Source of the DNA: Patescibacteria group bacterium
Lineage (GTDB): Bacteria; Patescibacteriota; Patescibacteriia; Magasanikbacterales; GWA2-37-8
Direction: 5' to 3'
Length of the DNA stretch: 64,000 nt
NCBI GenBank assembly: GCA_041649475.1
Contig: JBAZNA010000001.1
Span: forward strand, 24,895-88,894
Shown here piece by piece: positions 95 through 5,834 of the stretch; the stretch's first letter is position 1, and each line of letters begins with the position of its first letter. The notes under the pieces are model-generated. The model was not told the origin of the DNA, did not search any database, and saw nothing but the letters and a program-made list of their open reading frames with translations. Position numbers and translations under genes: made by a program.

Positions 95-167
95 GGGTCG
101 CTAGCTCAGCTGGTAGAGCAGATCCCTCTTAAGGATAAGGTCCAGGGTTCGATCCCCTGGCGACCCA
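95..167 (+). tRNA. tRNA-Lys (anticodon CTT)
   Basis: Cloverleaf by eye: acceptor GGGTCGC/GCGACCC, D-arm GCTC-AGCTGGTA-GAGC, anticodon loop CTCTTAA, T-arm CAGGG-TTCGATC-CCCTG, discriminator A. No CCA encoded. Confidence 0.8.
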
Positions 168-174
168 CAATTTT

Positions 175-246
175 GCCTCCATAGTTTAATGGATAAAATT
201 CTAGGCTTCGAACCTAGCGATGGGAGTTCGATTCTCTCTGGAGGCA
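175..246 (+). tRNA. tRNA-Arg (anticodon TCG)
   Basis: Acceptor GCCTCCA/TGGAGGC, anticodon stem CTAGG/CCTAG with loop CTTCGAA, T-loop TTCGATT. Confidence 0.8.
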
Positions 247-257
247 CGAGAAGTAAT

Positions 258-1079
258 TTACACGATCAAACCATCCACTTTCACCTTTTCTTCCTGATAG
301 AAATTATTTTCACCCAGCACTGCGGTGATTTCTTTTTTTAAGTCCTCCAAACCGGTTTGGCTGTCTGACATCGGAATAATTACAAACGGCAAGTCCTTGG
401 AAAATCTCTCTTCGCCAAAACCGTGATGGCCAAAAGCAATATTTATCGCCACCTTTAATTCTTCAAGCGTATAGTCAGCCGGCAAATGTTTTCGTTCAAT
501 AATAAATCCCATCGGCAAGCCGATTTCTCTGTTGGGATTAAACCCGCCGATACCATCATAATAAACCACGCGGGCCACATGAAACTCGGCCGGGCGCTCC
601 ATCTCTTCGGCCGGGATGTGATTATAATTTTCTTCATGCCCTAAACGGCCCATTTCTTCAGCAACCATTTTTGACCAATTTTTAGCATAATTTTCAATCT
701 GTTCAGCTGTTGGGTTAGTGCCCGGGAAATCCCTTTTATACGCCAAACCAGCTGCCCCACAACCCTCATGACTGGTAACCTCGGTTATACCTAAATCAAC
801 AAACATTTTAGCTGTTTTAGCAATCCGTTCTTCTTCAGAATTTGCCGGAAACAAAATTCCGGACCCGGCCAGACAAAATTTATTCTCCCCGCCATAATCT
901 TTAAAAGCAGTGCCTTCATCCATACAAACCACACACTGCAAGTCCTTGACAAAAGCATGTTTTAAATCCGGAAATTCTGTTTTAAAATATTTTTCCGCGC
1001 CGTCATTTAATAAAATTTTGATTTCGTCATTTTCCGCCTCCCAGGCAGATTGTTTTTCCTGCTCAATTTGGTCATCCAT
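258..1079 (-). CDS. Hypothetical protein, CxDG...HxxCGAAGL family (beta-carbonic-anhydrase-like metal-site motif); paralog of 1198-1896
   Basis: 273-aa ORF. It has CMDEGT about 50 residues upstream of SHEGCGAAGL. The same two motifs recur in the next gene. Confidence 0.6.
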   Translation of the reverse strand: MDDQIEQEKQSAWEAENDEIKILLNDGAEKYFKTEFPDLKHAFVKDLQCVVCMDEGTAFKDYGGENKFCLAGSGILFPANSEEERIAKTAKMFVDLGITEVTSHEGCGAAGLAYKRDFPGTNPTAEQIENYAKNWSKMVAEEMGRLGHEENYNHIPAEEMERPAEFHVARVVYYDGIGGFNPNREIGLPMGFIIERKHLPADYTLEELKVAINIAFGHHGFGEERFSKDLPFVIIPMSDSQTGLEDLKKEITAVLGENNFYQEEKVKVDGLIV

Positions 1080-1197
1080 ATAAAAAAGTTAAAATTATAT
1101 CTAAAAGATACTATTTTTTACCGCAAAAGTCAAACAAAAAAACTCGCAGTGCCGACCCGTCGTCGGATTCACTGCGAGCGTTATGAACAAAGAGCAA

Positions 1198-1896
1198 CTA
1201 CGAGTACAGGGCGTGCGGATAGTGCTCCAAAAGCCACTTCTCCGCGGCCTTGGTGGAGATGAAATAGGTGCGCTTGCGGGCGCTATTGCCGCCGTTGCCG
1301 TCATCGCCATAGTCCACATGCACAAAGCACGGAAACTTGACGTTCGTGAAAACGGGCATGGCCTTGAGACGGCGTTTAGCCTTGATGAGGCATGAGATCT
1401 CCTCCACAAAACTCATACCACAGAGCCCAGCCGCTCCACACGGCGCGTGGATGCAAAGTCCGACGGTCTTGATCTGCTTCATGCGAATGCCCAGCCAGAC
1501 ATTGATCATCAGTATGATATCCTGACGCATCGCCTTGCCCATGAACCAGATGACAGGGTAGAGGAGTAACAGCAAGATGCGCCAGCCGAAATCGAGATTG
1601 TTCTCAACCAGAAACTCGTAGTAGAACCTCGACATGTTGGCGAGCGGACTGGACGGCGAGAGTGCCAGCGCGCCACCATTTATTGCGAACAGATGAACAC
1701 GTTCGGCGCCGTATTGAGCCTCAACCAGAAGCCCGATGTGCTTCTTCATCTCGGGAAGCTGGTCCCCGTCGCTACACACACCGCCCAAGATGATGCCATT
1801 GTGCAACATCAACTTGCTGTCCGCCAGCTCGGTCAGGATGTTTGCTTTGCGGGCTTCCAGGACCTGCTCCCGATCCCTTTCGGACAACTTACCCAT
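1198..1896 (-). CDS. Hypothetical protein, second member of the CxDG...HxxCGAAGL family, with a hydrophobic insertion; GC-rich relative to its surroundings
   Basis: 232-aa ORF with CSDGD and HAPCGAAGL, and a TM-like insert WRILLLLLYPVIWFMG between them. The DNA from about 1150 to 1900 is visibly GC-richer than neighbours. Confidence 0.55.
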   Translation of the reverse strand: MGKLSERDREQVLEARKANILTELADSKLMLHNGIILGGVCSDGDQLPEMKKHIGLLVEAQYGAERVHLFAINGGALALSPSSPLANMSRFYYEFLVENNLDFGWRILLLLLYPVIWFMGKAMRQDIILMINVWLGIRMKQIKTVGLCIHAPCGAAGLCGMSFVEEISCLIKAKRRLKAMPVFTNVKFPCFVHVDYGDDGNGGNSARKRTYFISTKAAEKWLLEHYPHALYS

Positions 1897-2230
1897 GGCC
1901 TGCCTCCATTATATGGCTCCGCCTGACGGCGGATTGTTAACAAAATATGCGGCATTAGATTACCACAATTTTTTGAAACGGTCAAGGATCTGCTCCCGGT
2001 AAAAATTTATAAAATTTTTAATTTTTCTTCACCTGTGCATAACTTTGTCTTTATCCCCTTCACTTTTAGATAAAAACATTCTATAATAAAGGTGGTCGAG
2101 AAAATTTTTTACAGCAATGCTTGTCTTGTAAAAAATTCTTCAATAGATTTTTTCTATCGCTCGCGAGGAGAAAAAATTTATAATCATTTCTTAATCCCGG
2201 CATTGCCGGGAGAGAAAGGGGGTGTCTACT

Positions 2231-2287: not shown

Positions 2288-2292
2288 TCACA

Positions 2293-2330
2293 AAAAATCT
2301 TCCCGTTTAAATTGGGAAGATTTTTTTGTT
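2293..2330. terminator. Bidirectional rho-independent terminator (AAAAATCTTCCC-gtttaaatt-GGGAAGATTTTTTT)
   Basis: 12-bp perfect stem flanked by an A-run and a T-run. It lies between convergent genes (small ORF + strand, PHP gene - strand). Confidence 0.7.
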
Positions 2331-2365: not shown

Positions 2366-3679
2366 TTAGAGCAATCTGGACTGTTTTAAATCGTTTTTTC
2401 TCCCGTCAGTTAACACTTCAACAACACCAAATTCTCCGTCATACCCCGGGTGCACCTTCACATGCCCGGCCCGCATATTGGCTATGGCTGTTAAAATATT
2501 GGCATCAGAAATATTTTTTTCAATTTCTTCTAAGCCCGCGTCCAATAAAATATAAAATTCACTGCCGATCTTTTTTATCATTAAATCATACTCGTTTTTT
2601 ACTTTTTTACTCGCCGGACCGACGTCGTATACTTTTCCCAGCACTTCTTTTAAAGGCACAATATACTTGTGCGGGATGAACTTATCCACAGGAATATTAT
2701 TTTCTTCGCGATCGGCCAAATCATCAACGCGGTGCAGAACGCCAACCGTTACCGGTTTCTTGCATTTCGGACAAATAAATTTTTTGGCCTTGGTTTCTTT
2801 TGGTGATAAAACGATTTCGCAATCGCGATGGCCGTCAAAATGATACTTTCCTTCCTCCGGATAAAATTCAATCGTGTATAAAAACTTTTTCTTATCACCG
2901 GTTTTGATAATGCGCGTGATTTCGTCATAATTTATATCCGCTTCATCCGCAAATTCAAACCGGTTGGCTTCCCTGCCTAAATTATTGAGGCCGTGCGCAT
3001 CGGAGTTTGATACCAGAGTAATGTTATCCAGTTTAGACAGCCGATGATTCATCGGTGGATCGCTGGAAAGCCCGGTTTCTCCGGCTTTTACATGCGGGGT
3101 CAGCTCTTCAAAGCACTCTTCAAATGAGTCATACCCGGATTTTGAACCCAAAACCGAAAACCACGGCGTCCAAATGTGGGCCGGTATCAGCATAAACCTC
3201 GGATCAATAGCCAAAATCATGCTTAAAATTACTTTTGCCGATAAACCCATAATCGGCCGACCGTCTGATCTGACATTTATATTTTTTTCTTCCAAAGCCC
3301 GATTAAATTTTTCTACTGCTTCAATACTTGGCGCCAAAATCAACAAATGCACCCGCCGGGTTTTATCTTTATGTTTGTAGATACACGAAATTTCAGTGCT
3401 TAAAATAAATTTTGTCGGGCTGGAATTATCTTTTAATTTATAAATTCCGGCGCCGGCGGCAACCTCCACTAAACTTTCTTTTATATGTTTAAACCACAGA
3501 GGATGGGTGTAGTCGCCGGTCGCCACGATATCAATCCCCTTGCCTTCGCAGGCCTTGGCAATTTTTGGCAATTCTAATTCAGCCGAGCAGGCCCGGGAAT
3601 AACGCGAGTGGATATGCAAATCCAGAATTTTTTTAAGCACAAATCTTTTCTTATGTGTCCAGCCCTTTTTGAAAAGCAT
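2366..3679 (-). CDS. PHP-domain phosphoesterase with C-terminal Zn-ribbon, endonuclease Q-like
   Basis: N-terminal DLHIHSRYSRACS (PHP metal motif) and C-terminal CPKCKKP...H zinc-ribbon-like segment. 437 aa. Confidence 0.6.
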   Translation of the reverse strand: MLFKKGWTHKKRFVLKKILDLHIHSRYSRACSAELELPKIAKACEGKGIDIVATGDYTHPLWFKHIKESLVEVAAGAGIYKLKDNSSPTKFILSTEISCIYKHKDKTRRVHLLILAPSIEAVEKFNRALEEKNINVRSDGRPIMGLSAKVILSMILAIDPRFMLIPAHIWTPWFSVLGSKSGYDSFEECFEELTPHVKAGETGLSSDPPMNHRLSKLDNITLVSNSDAHGLNNLGREANRFEFADEADINYDEITRIIKTGDKKKFLYTIEFYPEEGKYHFDGHRDCEIVLSPKETKAKKFICPKCKKPVTVGVLHRVDDLADREENNIPVDKFIPHKYIVPLKEVLGKVYDVGPASKKVKNEYDLMIKKIGSEFYILLDAGLEEIEKNISDANILTAIANMRAGHVKVHPGYDGEFGVVEVLTDGRKNDLKQSRLL

Positions 3680-4127
3680 TTTTATTTTCCTCCCAGCCAG
3701 CTTTTTCTTTCAGCCGTCCTTCAAGCAGCATCAGGGTTTCGGCAATCTTTAAAACGCCCTTGTGTTCCAACAGTTTCGCCAAAAGTCCGAGAAAAAATAC
3801 ATTAAAATTTTTCGCCTGCAGTCCGGCAAGACCCGCGTAATCCTTAACATCAAAAATTTTTACATCATCGGATATATAATTTGTTGTCCGCTCCCTGGCC
3901 TGATCGGACATGATCACCAAAATATCCGGTTCAGTGAATTTCGGATAAGAAATGCCTTTGTCGCTGATTTGGATAAAGGCCAAAGACACGCCTCCCCTTT
4001 GTTCCAGCCCGTAATTGGGAATATAGGTAACGTGCTTGTTGTTTTCAAAAACGGCCTTGCAGATAACGTCAGCCATCAGCTGAATTCCCTGGCCCCCGTC
4101 GCCGGCTAAAATTATTTTTAACAGCAT
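3651..4127 (-). CDS. 2-oxoacid:ferredoxin oxidoreductase, gamma subunit
   Basis: AGDGGQG motif near the N-terminus. Size about 158 aa. Last gene of an alpha-beta-gamma run. Confidence 0.8.
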   Translation of the reverse strand: MLLKIILAGDGGQGIQLMADVICKAVFENNKHVTYIPNYGLEQRGGVSLAFIQISDKGISYPKFTEPDILVIMSDQARERTTNYISDDVKIFDVKDYAGLAGLQAKNFNVFFLGLLAKLLEHKGVLKIAETLMLLEGRLKEKAGWEENKNAFQKGLDT

Positions 4128-4129
4128 AA

Positions 4130-4804
4130 TTAAATTTCTCCTGTTTTAAAAGTTTGTTTTAAATTTTCCAAATAGGCAATCGTGCCCTGACCAATGGTTT
4201 TCCAATTGGTCGGACAGAAAGACAAAAATTCAATTAGTGAAAAATGACCCGCTTGCTGGGTTTCAATTGCTTTGCGGATAAATTCCTGCATTTGTTTAAC
4301 GTCGTTTACGGCGGTTCTGGCCAAATACGCGCCTTCCTGCACTACGCTTTTTAACAGCTCCGGGCCAAACAACGCCTCCTCTTCATAACCATGAGGATGG
4401 GTGTCGGTCTTTTGTCCTTTTAAAGTTGTCGGCGCGGTCTGACCGCCGGTCATCCCGTAAAGTGTGTTGTTTATTACAAAAACCGTGATTGGCTCATCGC
4501 GCCTGGCCGCATATAATAAGCTCTGCAAACCAATTGCATAGGCCCCGCCGTCGCCGGTATAACCAAAACACAAGGACTCCGGCCTGGCTTTCTTAAAACC
4601 CATCATTGTCGGAGTCACCCGGCCGTGGTGGGTCTGAAAGGTGTTTACCGGCAAAAAATTCCAGGCCAAAAGCGAACAACCGATGTCCAAACCCAAAACA
4701 GCTTTGTCTTCAAATTTTAAATCTTTCAGAACTTTCCCCAGCATCATGAGCACTATCGGGTGTCCACAGCCGGCGCAAAATTTTGACGGTGCTAAATTCG
4801 GCAT
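4130..4804 (-). CDS. 2-oxoacid:ferredoxin oxidoreductase, beta (TPP-binding) subunit
   Basis: CAGCGH motif and GDGG...TGGQ TPP-binding region. 3-nt spacings to its neighbours suggest translational coupling. Confidence 0.85.
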   Translation of the reverse strand: MPNLAPSKFCAGCGHPIVLMMLGKVLKDLKFEDKAVLGLDIGCSLLAWNFLPVNTFQTHHGRVTPTMMGFKKARPESLCFGYTGDGGAYAIGLQSLLYAARRDEPITVFVINNTLYGMTGGQTAPTTLKGQKTDTHPHGYEEEALFGPELLKSVVQEGAYLARTAVNDVKQMQEFIRKAIETQQAGHFSLIEFLSFCPTNWKTIGQGTIAYLENLKQTFKTGEI

Positions 4805-4805
4805 A

Positions 4806-5834
4806 CTATTTTAAAAATTTTATAATCTCTTCCGGTTCAATCCCCAAAGCCGGATGCTGTAAATATTCAAATGGAACTGAAACTTCCGGAGCCAGCTGGT
4901 CGCGCACTATCCTGGCCAACTGTCCCAAACTTGATTCAATAACGATGATTTTTTCTACATTCTTACAAACTTTATCCAATTCTTTTTTGGGAAACGGGCT
5001 TAAAGTGACAGGACGGAACAACCCGACTTTTTTTCCTTTCTCCCGCAGATGATCAACCGCGGACTTTGCACTCGCCCCGACAATTCCGTGAGCGATTAAT
5101 AAAATCTTGGCATCTTTAGTTTGATATTCTTCGGCTTCGGCAATTTTTCCGGCCATTTTATGAAAATCTTTTTGCGACTCTAAAACATGGTCGTGCAACT
5201 CTTCCTCAAAGGTATAAATATTTCGCCAATGCCTGATTTCTTCGTCTTTGATAAACTGCTGGGCCGGAATATTTTTTAGACCATCTGTTAATTCTGAAAA
5301 ATCAATCACACCCTTGGTTTTGAGCATGTAACCGTCAGTTAAAACAATCGCCGGAAAATGATACTGCCAAGCGTTATTAAACGCTTTTCTCGTCAACAAA
5401 TAAAGCTCATCCAAATTTGCAGGAGAATAAACAATGCGCATTCCCTCGCCATTGCCCCCATAACAGGCCAAAATAACCTCCTGCTGGGAATAAATCACTG
5501 TGCCGGAGCTTGGCCCGCCTCTTTGCGCAATAACAGCCACAAAAGGCAACCTCATGCCTTCGGCCATGCTCAAGGCGTCCTGCATCAAGATATGTCCCGG
5601 CCCGGCCGTGGCCGTAAAACATTTCTGCCCGGCCAGCACTCCCCCGCAGACCCCAAAACCAGCCGCGATTTCATCTTCGGTCTGTAAATACTTACCGCCT
5701 TTTTTTATCCAACCGGTAAAAACCTCGGTTGCCGGCGTGATCGGGTAACCATACATCATTTCAGCCCCGGCATCCTGCGCTGCTCTGGCTACCACTTCGG
5801 CTCCGGTTGTAAATTGTTTTTTATTATTTAGCAT
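4806..5834 (-). CDS. 2-oxoacid:ferredoxin oxidoreductase, alpha subunit
   Basis: N-terminal TGAEVVARAAQDAGAEMMYGYPITPATE, characteristic of the KorA/PorA alpha subunit. Confidence 0.85.
   Translation of the reverse strand: MLNNKKQFTTGAEVVARAAQDAGAEMMYGYPITPATEVFTGWIKKGGKYLQTEDEIAAGFGVCGGVLAGQKCFTATAGPGHILMQDALSMAEGMRLPFVAVIAQRGGPSSGTVIYSQQEVILACYGGNGEGMRIVYSPANLDELYLLTRKAFNNAWQYHFPAIVLTDGYMLKTKGVIDFSELTDGLKNIPAQQFIKDEEIRHWRNIYTFEEELHDHVLESQKDFHKMAGKIAEAEEYQTKDAKILLIAHGIVGASAKSAVDHLREKGKKVGLFRPVTLSPFPKKELDKVCKNVEKIIVIESSLGQLARIVRDQLAPEVSVPFEYLQHPALGIEPEEIIKFLK

Follow-up and report, generated by a model that had tools for sequence, protein, structure and literature searches.

Canonical β-carbonic anhydrases (β-CAs; Pro_CA, PF00484), among them E. 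coli Can, M. thermautotrophicus Cab (1g5c) and A. fumigatus CafD (6lac), are single-domain proteins in which strands 1 and 3 end in the Cys…His-x-x-Cys-Gly zinc ligands, with an aspartate two residues past the first cysteine and the dyad arginine of the CxDxR motif after it. The carboxysome shell enzyme CsoSCA (formerly the epsilon class; PDB 8thm) has an N-terminal helical part, a catalytic lobe and a zinc-less C-terminal β-CA-like lobe. In the tandem β-CA of P. purpureum (1ddz), both repeats are active. COS hydrolase (3vrk), CS2 hydrolase (3ten) and the LCIB/theta-CA proteins (5k5w, 5b5y) retain the Asp-Arg dyad.

The two proteins described here, A and B, are encoded by adjacent minus-strand genes in a 64-kb window, which is the whole stretch of DNA that was analyzed (Table 1). 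On the basis of predicted structures and motif register, both appear to be anciently diverged members of the β-CA structural superfamily. The paired motifs reported in a preliminary description of this DNA, CMDEG…HEGCGAAGL in A and CSDGDQ…HAPCGAAGL in B, can be read directly from the translations, and in all six frames of the window the expression H..CG[AG][AGVC] matches only the two motif 2 sites. The same description had suggested a β-CA-like zinc site, replacement of the dyad arginine and membership of uncharacterised families, and it is borne out on each of these points.

Table 1. Features of the locus, with positions numbered from the first letter of the window.
Feature	Position	Strand	Remarks
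ORF A	258..1079	minus	273 aa; β-CA-like, probably two lobes, with an N-terminal helical arm
A motif 1, C52-M-D54-E55-G56	912..926	minus	counterpart of β-CA CxDxR, Gly for Arg
A motif 2, H104-E-G-C107-G-A-A-G-L	744..770	minus	counterpart of β-CA HxxCG
A C-terminal lobe, ~residues 151-273	258..629	minus	probable degenerate β-CA repeat, metal ligands gone
ORF B	1198..1896	minus	232 aa; single-domain β-CA-like, long form
B motif 1, C41-S-D43-G-D45-Q	1759..1776	minus	Asp at the dyad-Arg position
B motif 2, H150-A-P-C153-G-A-A-G-L	1423..1449	minus	aligns to HxxCG of the β-CA 1ddz and of Can
Long-form B insertion, ~residues 86-124	1525..1641	minus	amphipathic helix, then hydrophobic helix with central Pro
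Promoter-like -35/-10 pair upstream of A, TTGACT-17-TATCTT	1105..1133	minus	consensus scan, 9/12 matches; pattern match only
Intrinsic-terminator-like hairpin and U7 tract	1136..1179	minus	directly past the B stop codon; GCUCGCAGUG…CACUGCGAG-UUUUUUU
GC-rich island with the B coding sequence at its centre	1101..2001	.	sole stretch of at least 52% GC in 700-bp windows, 64 kb
tRNA-Lys(CTT) and tRNA-Arg(TCG)	95..247	plus	tRNA-Lys 95-168, tRNA-Arg 175-247; ARAGORN

The zinc-ligand pattern of the superfamily is present in both proteins (C52/H104/C107 in A, C41/H150/C153 in B), at the expected secondary-structure positions. In A, motif 1 comes after a predicted strand (residues 49-51), and motif 2 covers the end of predicted strand 100-104 and the start of predicted helix 108-117; C52, D54, G56, H104, C107 and G108 are invariant in 52 family sequences. 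Among 79 diverse relatives of B, the only invariant residues are C41, D43, G74, H150 and C153. The Cys/Asp/His/Cys set is in register with the zinc site of E. coli Can, and in hhalign C41, D43, H150 and C153 of B fall onto C42, D44, H98 and C101, with D45 opposite R46. The Cys-to-His spacing of A is 52 residues, similar to that of canonical β-CAs (56 in E. coli Can, from C42 to H98), and its HxxC spacing is also of the canonical type. The His…Cys spacing of CsoSCA is longer. The position two residues past the aspartate, an arginine in canonical β-CAs, is an invariant glycine (Gly56) in A and an aspartate (Asp45, in at least 90% of the close family) in B, and it is never arginine in the consensus of the 79-sequence B alignment; the CxDxR dyad is thus absent from both families. 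Extended family motifs, namely CGAAGL (both), AGSGIL (A) and LNGGAL (B), further separate them from canonical β-CAs.

Predicted models (AF2) of A (pLDDT 97.3) and B (pLDDT 86.1) share an α/β fold with the parallel β-sheet core of β-CAs. Each recovers this fold independently, the motifs lie at equivalent strand ends, and the resemblance between the two models extends beyond the short motif. The best Foldseek match for A is CsoSCA, with a probability of 0.96. At the level of sequence, no CA family is matched significantly: hmmscan results are sub-threshold, and hhalign gives E values of 0.006-0.04 against an E. coli Can profile that is shallow, having been built from relatives at 76-100% identity. 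With this profile, low probabilities are returned despite the correct register. Neither A nor B nor their sampled relatives reach the gathering threshold of Pro_CA (PF00484), which is the commonest sub-threshold Pfam match in both families (5 of 52 sequences for A, best E 0.0058; 3 of 79 for B, best E 0.049), and the window proteins themselves have no Pfam or NCBIfam hit. When the B profile is compared with PDB sequences, the β-CA 1ddz is the best match, at the HxxCG motif; HMA-domain (RGA5) matches of the same profile are short chance matches to 'vHmPCGk', and DMC1, the sole PDB-sequence match of the A profile (hmmsearch), was discarded as spurious. Since there is no significant sequence match to any CA family, superfamily membership rests on the predicted structures and the motif register.

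Canonical β-CAs are single-domain proteins like B, whereas A probably has an extra degenerate lobe and would then follow the general plan of CsoSCA. The aligned length of A is ~196 residues to two-domain CAs (196 to 8thm) versus ~105 residues to single-domain CAs. Its C-terminal lobe carries YYDGIGG in place of GCSDSR and GHHGFG in place of GHYGCG, and in an hhalign comparison of the A and Can profiles, residues 126-231 match Can 5-111 (E 0.006) but lack the metal ligands. This lobe is probably a degenerate β-CA repeat, although the comparison between the N-half and C-half of A is unsupportive, with self-similarity that is not significant (hhalign profile comparison, E 0.25). A differs from CsoSCA in its length (273 aa versus ~460-514 aa), in lacking the dyad arginine, and in a sequence identity of only 14%, and the CsoSCA Pfam models are not matched by A or B even at E<=10. 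There is also no carboxysome (cso) context; A instead follows an EndoQ-like gene or closes an atp operon.

Resemblance to the other described systems is more limited. A keeps its metal ligands in the N-lobe only, unlike 1ddz with its two active repeats. Neither 1ddz nor the repeats of the zeta-class cadmium/zinc enzyme CDCA1 (3uk8) show significant sequence similarity to A or B, and these enzymes come from a red alga and a diatom rather than from CPR bacteria. COS hydrolase, CS2 hydrolase and LCIB/theta-CA have no sequence-level relationship to A or B, which also lack the sulfur-metabolism or CCM context of those proteins and, as noted above, their dyad.

The B protein of the window belongs to a long form, and carries a partly hydrophobic insertion that short-form relatives and canonical β-CAs do not have. 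The preliminary description gave this insertion as 16 hydrophobic residues; that is approximately the length of its hydrophobic core (WRILLLLLYPVIWFMG), but the whole element extends over ~35-40 residues relative to the short forms. It is missing from the short-form B proteins P0129-P0140 and present in nine of the 79 B representatives, where the maximum KD19 hydropathy is 1.3-2.0. Helices are predicted at residues 89-98, 103-111 and 113-122, and the insertion may serve for membrane association or as a lid.

Both ORFs are genuine genes, given their homologue counts (195 for A and 20 for B in a word-indexed search) and dN/dS values of 0.08 (A) and 0.20 (B) between the window and its relative L001. 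A profile search with B recovers 692 clusters at 50% identity. A and B are 22% identical over 58 residues, with a marginal BLASTP match (E 0.014), and their profiles align in hhalign with E 5e-4 at full length and E 4.5e-5 (probability 69%) when B is compared with the N-half of A. Judged from these sequence comparisons, A and B are paralogs that diverged anciently within the superfamily, each an old and separately conserved family, and not a recent duplicate pair. The two families are largely restricted to Patescibacteria/CPR and are without annotation, and a literature search on CA in CPR, CsoSCA-like proteins and CA with atp operons yielded no relevant work. A scan with one peptide pattern only detected A in 45 species-representative genomes. 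In seven of these, no more than 5 kb separates B from A, and the same holds for the window and for L001, L009, L011 and L005; the genes recur as neighbors in several CPR lineages, in either order. In L005, an Uhrbacteria genome, and in L007, a further protein, C, is encoded downstream of B; it is a B homologue (hhalign probability 97.5%) that has lost the ligands, and no such degenerate paralog was found in the 64-kb window.

The genes around A and B encode an EndoQ-like protein, POR subunits and tRNAs. Elsewhere in the CPR, A lies next to atp genes and closes the ATP-synthase operon, and in nine loci it begins no more than 27 bp after atpC. In the window, the hairpin that follows B has an MFE of -26.9 kcal/mol (z -2.55), and the promoter-like pair upstream of A suggests that the two genes may be separate transcription units.

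The difference in base composition reported for B is pronounced. B has 55.5% GC versus 43.9% for the window, and only 0.08% of 700-bp windows (mean 43.8%, sd 3.5%) attain its value; its GC3 of 0.751 compares with a mean of 0.447 (sd 0.060) for the 55 long ORFs of the window, the runner-up having 0.535. B is thus the strongest outlier in both measures. Its GC3 is 0.75-0.81 in the window, L001 and L009, where flanking genes have ~0.40, and it exceeds that of neighboring genes at all 14 loci examined, an excess that is only partly accounted for by one old transfer. An antisense gene was considered as a cause of this GC richness and rejected, because the window has only short antisense ORF fragments of 40-88 aa, a long antisense ORF being confined to L009.

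The slot in which the EndoQ-like gene is followed by a GC-rich, long-form B and then by A is common to the window, L001 and L009. The window A protein is 86% identical to that of L001 and 75% identical to that of L009, whereas the B proteins of the window and L001 are 67% identical. Window B has 26-29% identity to the same-slot B of the closer relatives L011 and L015, compared with 39-45% to B from distant lineages. In neighbor-joining trees, which have moderate support, the long-form B proteins form a clade (73% support), as do the same-slot B genes (75%), and the B tree is discordant with that of A. A horizontal origin for B, as proposed in the preliminary description, is therefore plausible given the GC island and the discordant phylogeny. 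The claim that the acquisition was recent is unsupported, because L001 and L009 carry a GC-rich B in the same slot and A has reached a dS of 0.89 between L001 and the window. Taken together, the data point to an old xenologous replacement by a GC-rich gene rather than a recent tRNA-targeted insertion. In a common ancestor of the window, L001 and L009 lineages, the long-form B would have taken over, or been added at, the position flanked by the EndoQ-like gene and A. Amelioration is not a decisive objection to horizontal transfer, since at a dS of ~0.9-1.3 a donor GC3 of at least 0.9 could still leave 0.75-0.8.

That B is instead a recent horizontal copy inserted at a tRNA hotspot, with the A/B pair a recent duplication by transfer, is very improbable. 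Its outlying GC and GC3, the discordant trees and the presence of tRNA-Lys and tRNA-Arg less than 1 kb away would all fit such an event, but A separates the tRNA pair from B, and the pair is conserved downstream of A in L001, L009, L011, L013, L015 and L024, including L013, which has no B; tRNA-targeted integration, as once suggested, is thus not supported. Inspection of neighboring ORFs and sequence revealed no integrase and no flanking repeats near B, and the local identity of ~22% between A and B, like the GC-rich B genes in the same slot of L001 and L009, is at odds with a recent duplication. It is more improbable still, to the point of being barely credible, that the shared signature is convergent or due to chance in unrelated proteins, or that B is a spurious ORF on GC-rich DNA. 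The marginal BLASTP match and the antisense annotation at L009 might be read in this way, but the independently recovered fold with motifs at equivalent strand ends, the profile-profile match, and the cluster count, dN/dS and confident model of B all count against it.

For the reading that we prefer, it is probable, as a whole comprising superfamily, zinc site, architecture, activity and gene history, that A and B are zinc proteins with a β-CA-like chemistry. Each would most likely bind one Zn2+ through its Cys-His-Cys set, with the invariant aspartate (D54 in A, D43 in B) acting as an acceptor for zinc-bound water or as a fourth ligand. A would be a single-chain pseudo-dimer in which, as in carboxysomal CsoSCA, one lobe has the metal site and the C-terminal lobe has lost it, and the single-domain B presumably dimerises. 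Both proteins would most likely use the zinc to hydrate or hydrolyse a small linear molecule, with CO2/HCO3- interconversion as the first candidate and COS or CS2 as alternatives. With Asp-x-Gly (A) or Asp-x-Asp (B) standing where canonical enzymes have the dyad, kinetics, gating or substrate are probably unlike those of textbook β-CAs. The missing arginine itself counts against the preferred reading, since its mutation in characterised β-CAs, as in work on M. thermoautotrophicum Cab, reportedly lowers activity strongly; R162, R170 or H167 in A and R66, H68 or K140 in B are candidates to take its place. A more tentative and rather doubtful extension is that A and B are two unrecognised β-CA subclasses (CPR, possibly DPANN) with differing gating or substrate, that A is an F-type ATP synthase accessory, for example in proton/bicarbonate supply or buffering at the membrane of metabolically minimal cells, and that the GC3 of B is kept by selection or recurrent transfer and is not decaying from a single event. 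It is unlikely that the proteins retain the β-CA fold and zinc but are not CO2 enzymes, the aspartate permanently closing a Cys2-His-Asp site that lacks arginine; they would then be structural, regulatory or sensor modules (of bicarbonate/CO2 or redox state), pseudo-enzymes, or accessory or assembly factors of the F-type ATP synthase. The replacement of the arginine in every member, the position of A directly after atpC and the tolerance of ligand-less copies (the C protein and, similarly, the C-lobe of A) favor such roles, but the four zinc-site residues, including the aspartate, are strictly invariant across very divergent sequences, as would be expected of a catalytic site, and nothing direct points to an interaction with ATP synthase. 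Type II β-CAs, moreover, have Asp-closed sites and are active enzymes.

The preferred reading, that A and B are zinc proteins of the β-CA fold, would give a concrete and testable assignment to two sizeable families of 'hypothetical' CPR proteins, that of B alone amounting to ~700 clusters at 50% identity. With the dyad arginine lost, the two families may be regarded as natural experiments on that residue and as candidates for new CA-like chemistry or regulation, and the repeated terminal position of A in the ATP-synthase operon would connect the handling of inorganic carbon or protons with energy conservation in little-known organisms. The history of B also shows that even a pronounced GC island can be old, as GC-rich B keeps its place in lineages whose synonymous divergence approaches saturation. 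At L009, the GC-rich gene misled a public gene caller, which annotated the antisense ORF in place of B.

ORFs A and B, two neighbouring minus-strand genes encoding divergent proteins that resemble beta-carbonic anhydrases (beta-CAs), are real, conserved and unannotated. A has the same sequence as an NCBI 'hypothetical protein' from a Patescibacteria MAG (locus tag WC526_00140), and B corresponds to WC526_00145. Neither has a match in Pfam or NCBIfam, and a literature search found no description of either family. A word-indexed search detected 195 homologues of A and 20 of B, and a full HMMER profile search with B detected 692 clusters at 50% identity, including 544 with E<=1e-10. A has a dN/dS of 0.08, and B one of 0.20, between the window and the related locus L001.

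The motifs named in the preliminary description were located exactly as quoted: C52-M-D-E-G followed by H104-E-G-C107-G-A-A-G-L in A, and C41-S-D-G-D-Q followed by H150-A-P-C153-G-A-A-G-L in B. These two sites are the sole matches to HxxCG[AG] in a six-frame regular-expression search of the whole 64-kb window. Across 79 diverse B relatives, only C41, D43, G74, H150 and C153 are invariant; the equivalent set in 52 A relatives is C52, D54, G56, H104 and C107, with further invariant residues, including R162 and H167, in the C-terminal half. A hairpin followed by U7 directly 3' of the B stop codon (-26.9 kcal/mol), a -35/-10-like pair upstream of A and a GGAGG ribosome-binding site 5' of the B ATG together make A and B look like separate transcription units.

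Features of the A/B locus and of related loci
Feature	Position	Strand	Remarks
tRNA-Lys(CTT) + tRNA-Arg(TCG)	95-247	plus	
ORF A	258-1079	minus	273 aa
ORF B	1198-1896	minus	232 aa
Tiny poly-Lys ORF, MAKKKKAKKKVKKAKKRR	2231-2286	plus	18 aa; purine-rich ribosome-binding site upstream
Terminator-like hairpin of poly-Lys ORF	2292-2326		
PHP-type protein, DLHIHSRYSRACS…	2366-3679	minus	437 aa; CPKCKK zinc-ribbon-like motif
Pyruvate:ferredoxin oxidoreductase (POR)	3651-5834	minus	three ORFs: POR_N/PFOR_II, TPP_enzyme_C, POR gamma
A homologues beside atpC	L005, L029, L031, L034, L041, L043, L045, L049, L058		~2-27 bp after, or overlapping, atpC end

Confident AlphaFold models (pLDDT 97.3 for A, 86.1 for B) show the beta-CA fold in both proteins. 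Structure comparison of A aligns ~105 residues with many single-domain beta-CAs, and its best Foldseek match is the carboxysomal enzyme CsoSCA. In both models the first cysteine follows strand 1 and HxxC runs from the end of strand 3 into the next helix, the same strand-end placement as in beta-CAs. Links at the level of sequence are weak but consistent. The commonest sub-threshold Pfam family among members of both families is Pro_CA (PF00484), the best match of the B profile to PDB sequences is the tandem beta-CA 1ddz, at its HxxCG motif, and hhalign places C41/D43/D45/H150/C153 of B opposite C42/D44/R46/H98/C101 of E. coli Can (the Can sequence used is 100% identical to a database protein). 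The arginine of the canonical Asp-Arg dyad (CxDxR) is missing from both families. Both proteins have the fold and the ligand residues of beta-CAs and lack the dyad and a sufficient Pro_CA model score; their most fitting place is inside the known beta-CA superfamily, as variants that are new and strongly divergent.

A and B are paralogs at superfamily depth only. Their preliminary description as a paralogous pair holds insofar as they are homologous, with E 5e-4 between profiles and E 4.5e-5 (probability 69%) for B against the N-terminal half of A. It does not extend to a recent duplication, as BLASTP finds only 13 identical residues in a 58-residue alignment of the two (E 0.014), and they represent two old families. 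Of 45 species-representative genomes, 7 have B no more than 5 kb from A, and the two genes are also neighbours in the window, L001, L009, L011 and L005; either gene order occurs.

The best hhalign match of the A profile to Can falls in the C-terminal half of A (E 0.006), with YYDGIGGFNP opposite GCSDSRVP and GHHGFG opposite GHYGCG. Since, in addition, about twice as many A residues align with two-lobed CAs as with single-domain CAs, A may be a pseudo-dimer formed by one chain, whose second lobe has no ligands, like that of CsoSCA. Direct comparison of the two halves of A gives no significant similarity. A parallel to such a lobe exists outside the window in gene C, which encodes ~180 aa directly downstream of B in L005 (5819-6355; Uhrbacteria) and L007 (5676-6233; Parcubacteria). 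C is a clear B homologue (hhalign probability 97.5%, E 8.5e-12) with NPDAVWG in place of HAPCGAAG, so that both His and Cys are replaced, and probably acts as a pseudo-enzyme partner to B; the window has no copy of it. The window's B itself carries ~35-40 residues (about 86-124) beyond the short form of about 180-200 aa, predicted to form an amphipathic helix and then a hydrophobic helix with a central proline. This insertion, present in 9 of 79 B representatives with a maximum KD19 hydropathy of 1.3-2.0, is plausibly a membrane-dipping element or lid.

Both proteins would be expected to bind zinc and to have hydrolytic or hydratase activity, with CO2 as the first candidate substrate and COS or CS2 as alternatives. 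The main rival is that they are non-catalytic zinc modules whose Cys2-His-Asp site is closed and which may be linked to ATP synthase. The end of the atp operon is one of two recurrent contexts of A: in nine loci (Uhrbacteria, Paceibacterota, Falkowbacteria and others), the A start lies no more than 27 bp from the atpC end and A is the terminal gene of the F-type ATP-synthase operon, followed in L005 and L031 by B. The other context, that of the window's clade, is an EndoQ-like/tRNA slot with the order POR subunits … EndoQ-like PHP protein, opposite-strand poly-Lys ORF, [B], A, tRNA-Arg/tRNA-Lys. In the window, L001, L009, L011, L015, L020, L023 and L024 this slot contains B; in L013, L016-L019, L021 and L022 it does not. 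A functional link between POR and the CA-like proteins is possible. POR is a CO2-releasing enzyme, and its ORFs lie 1.8 kb upstream of B, with synteny in L004 and L009.

The preliminary description also regarded B as a GC-rich copy acquired recently by horizontal transfer at a tRNA integration hotspot. The compositional anomaly is clear: B has 55.5% GC against 43.9% for the window, and its GC3 of 0.751 is by far the most extreme in the window, whose 55 long ORFs have 0.447±0.060. B also exceeds its neighbours in GC3 in 14/14 loci tested, where host locus GC ranges from 37% to 58%. The gain was not recent, however, because orthologous long-form B genes occupy the same slot in L001 and L009 (GC3 0.81 in each), over a span in which A identity to the window has fallen to 86% and 75%, respectively, and A dS has reached 0.89 (window against L001). 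A horizontal origin agrees with the discordance of the A and B trees. For A, the window shares 61-65% identity with L011 and L015; for B, it shares only 26-29% with their same-slot genes, against 39-45% with long-form B of distant lineages (L046, P0125, L005). In the neighbour-joining B tree, the window clade (100% support) is nested in the long-form group (73%), apart from the same-slot clade (75%). B is best read as an old xenologous replacement or addition, presumably from a GC-richer CPR donor. The hotspot is contradicted by the tRNA pair itself, which lies on the other side of A from B, is also found in B-less L013 and is ancestral synteny.

In L009, a second GC-rich gene (L009:7013-7369 (-); 118 aa, GC 0.60, GC3 0.75, without a Pfam match) forms an insertion that separates A from the tRNA-Arg/Lys pair, and L011 and L015 carry different insertions at that point. 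The slot that varies beside the tRNAs is therefore the one on their side of A, not the place of B. The public L009 annotation misses the intact B (L009:5116-5805 (+)) in favour of a 257-aa antisense ORF without homologues (L009:5077-5850 (-)), an artefact of the high GC3. Some contigs with A-family genes bear the labels Acidobacteriota/Thermoanaerobaculia, Altiarchaeota and Aenigmatarchaeota (L027, L028, L035, L054), and the label of several CPR-like loci is 'uncultured Gammaproteobacteria'; the non-CPR labels may reflect wider distribution, transfer or mis-binning.

The PHP gene is conserved next to the B/A slot, on its upstream side. A Pfam scan of the window's protein gave no match; its orthologues resemble endonuclease Q and have a precomputed assignment to MJ0043_C (PF27218). 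The poly-Lys ORF appears to encode a very basic micro-protein that is conserved but not annotated: in nine relatives (L001, L009, L011, L013, L015, L020, L022, L023, L024), similar ORFs of 14-26 aa (MAKKKAKKKV…) hold the same position by the EndoQ-like gene. In L013, which has A without B, a urea-transporter gene (PF03253; L013:3443-4300 (+)) is the immediate upstream neighbour of the EndoQ-like gene.
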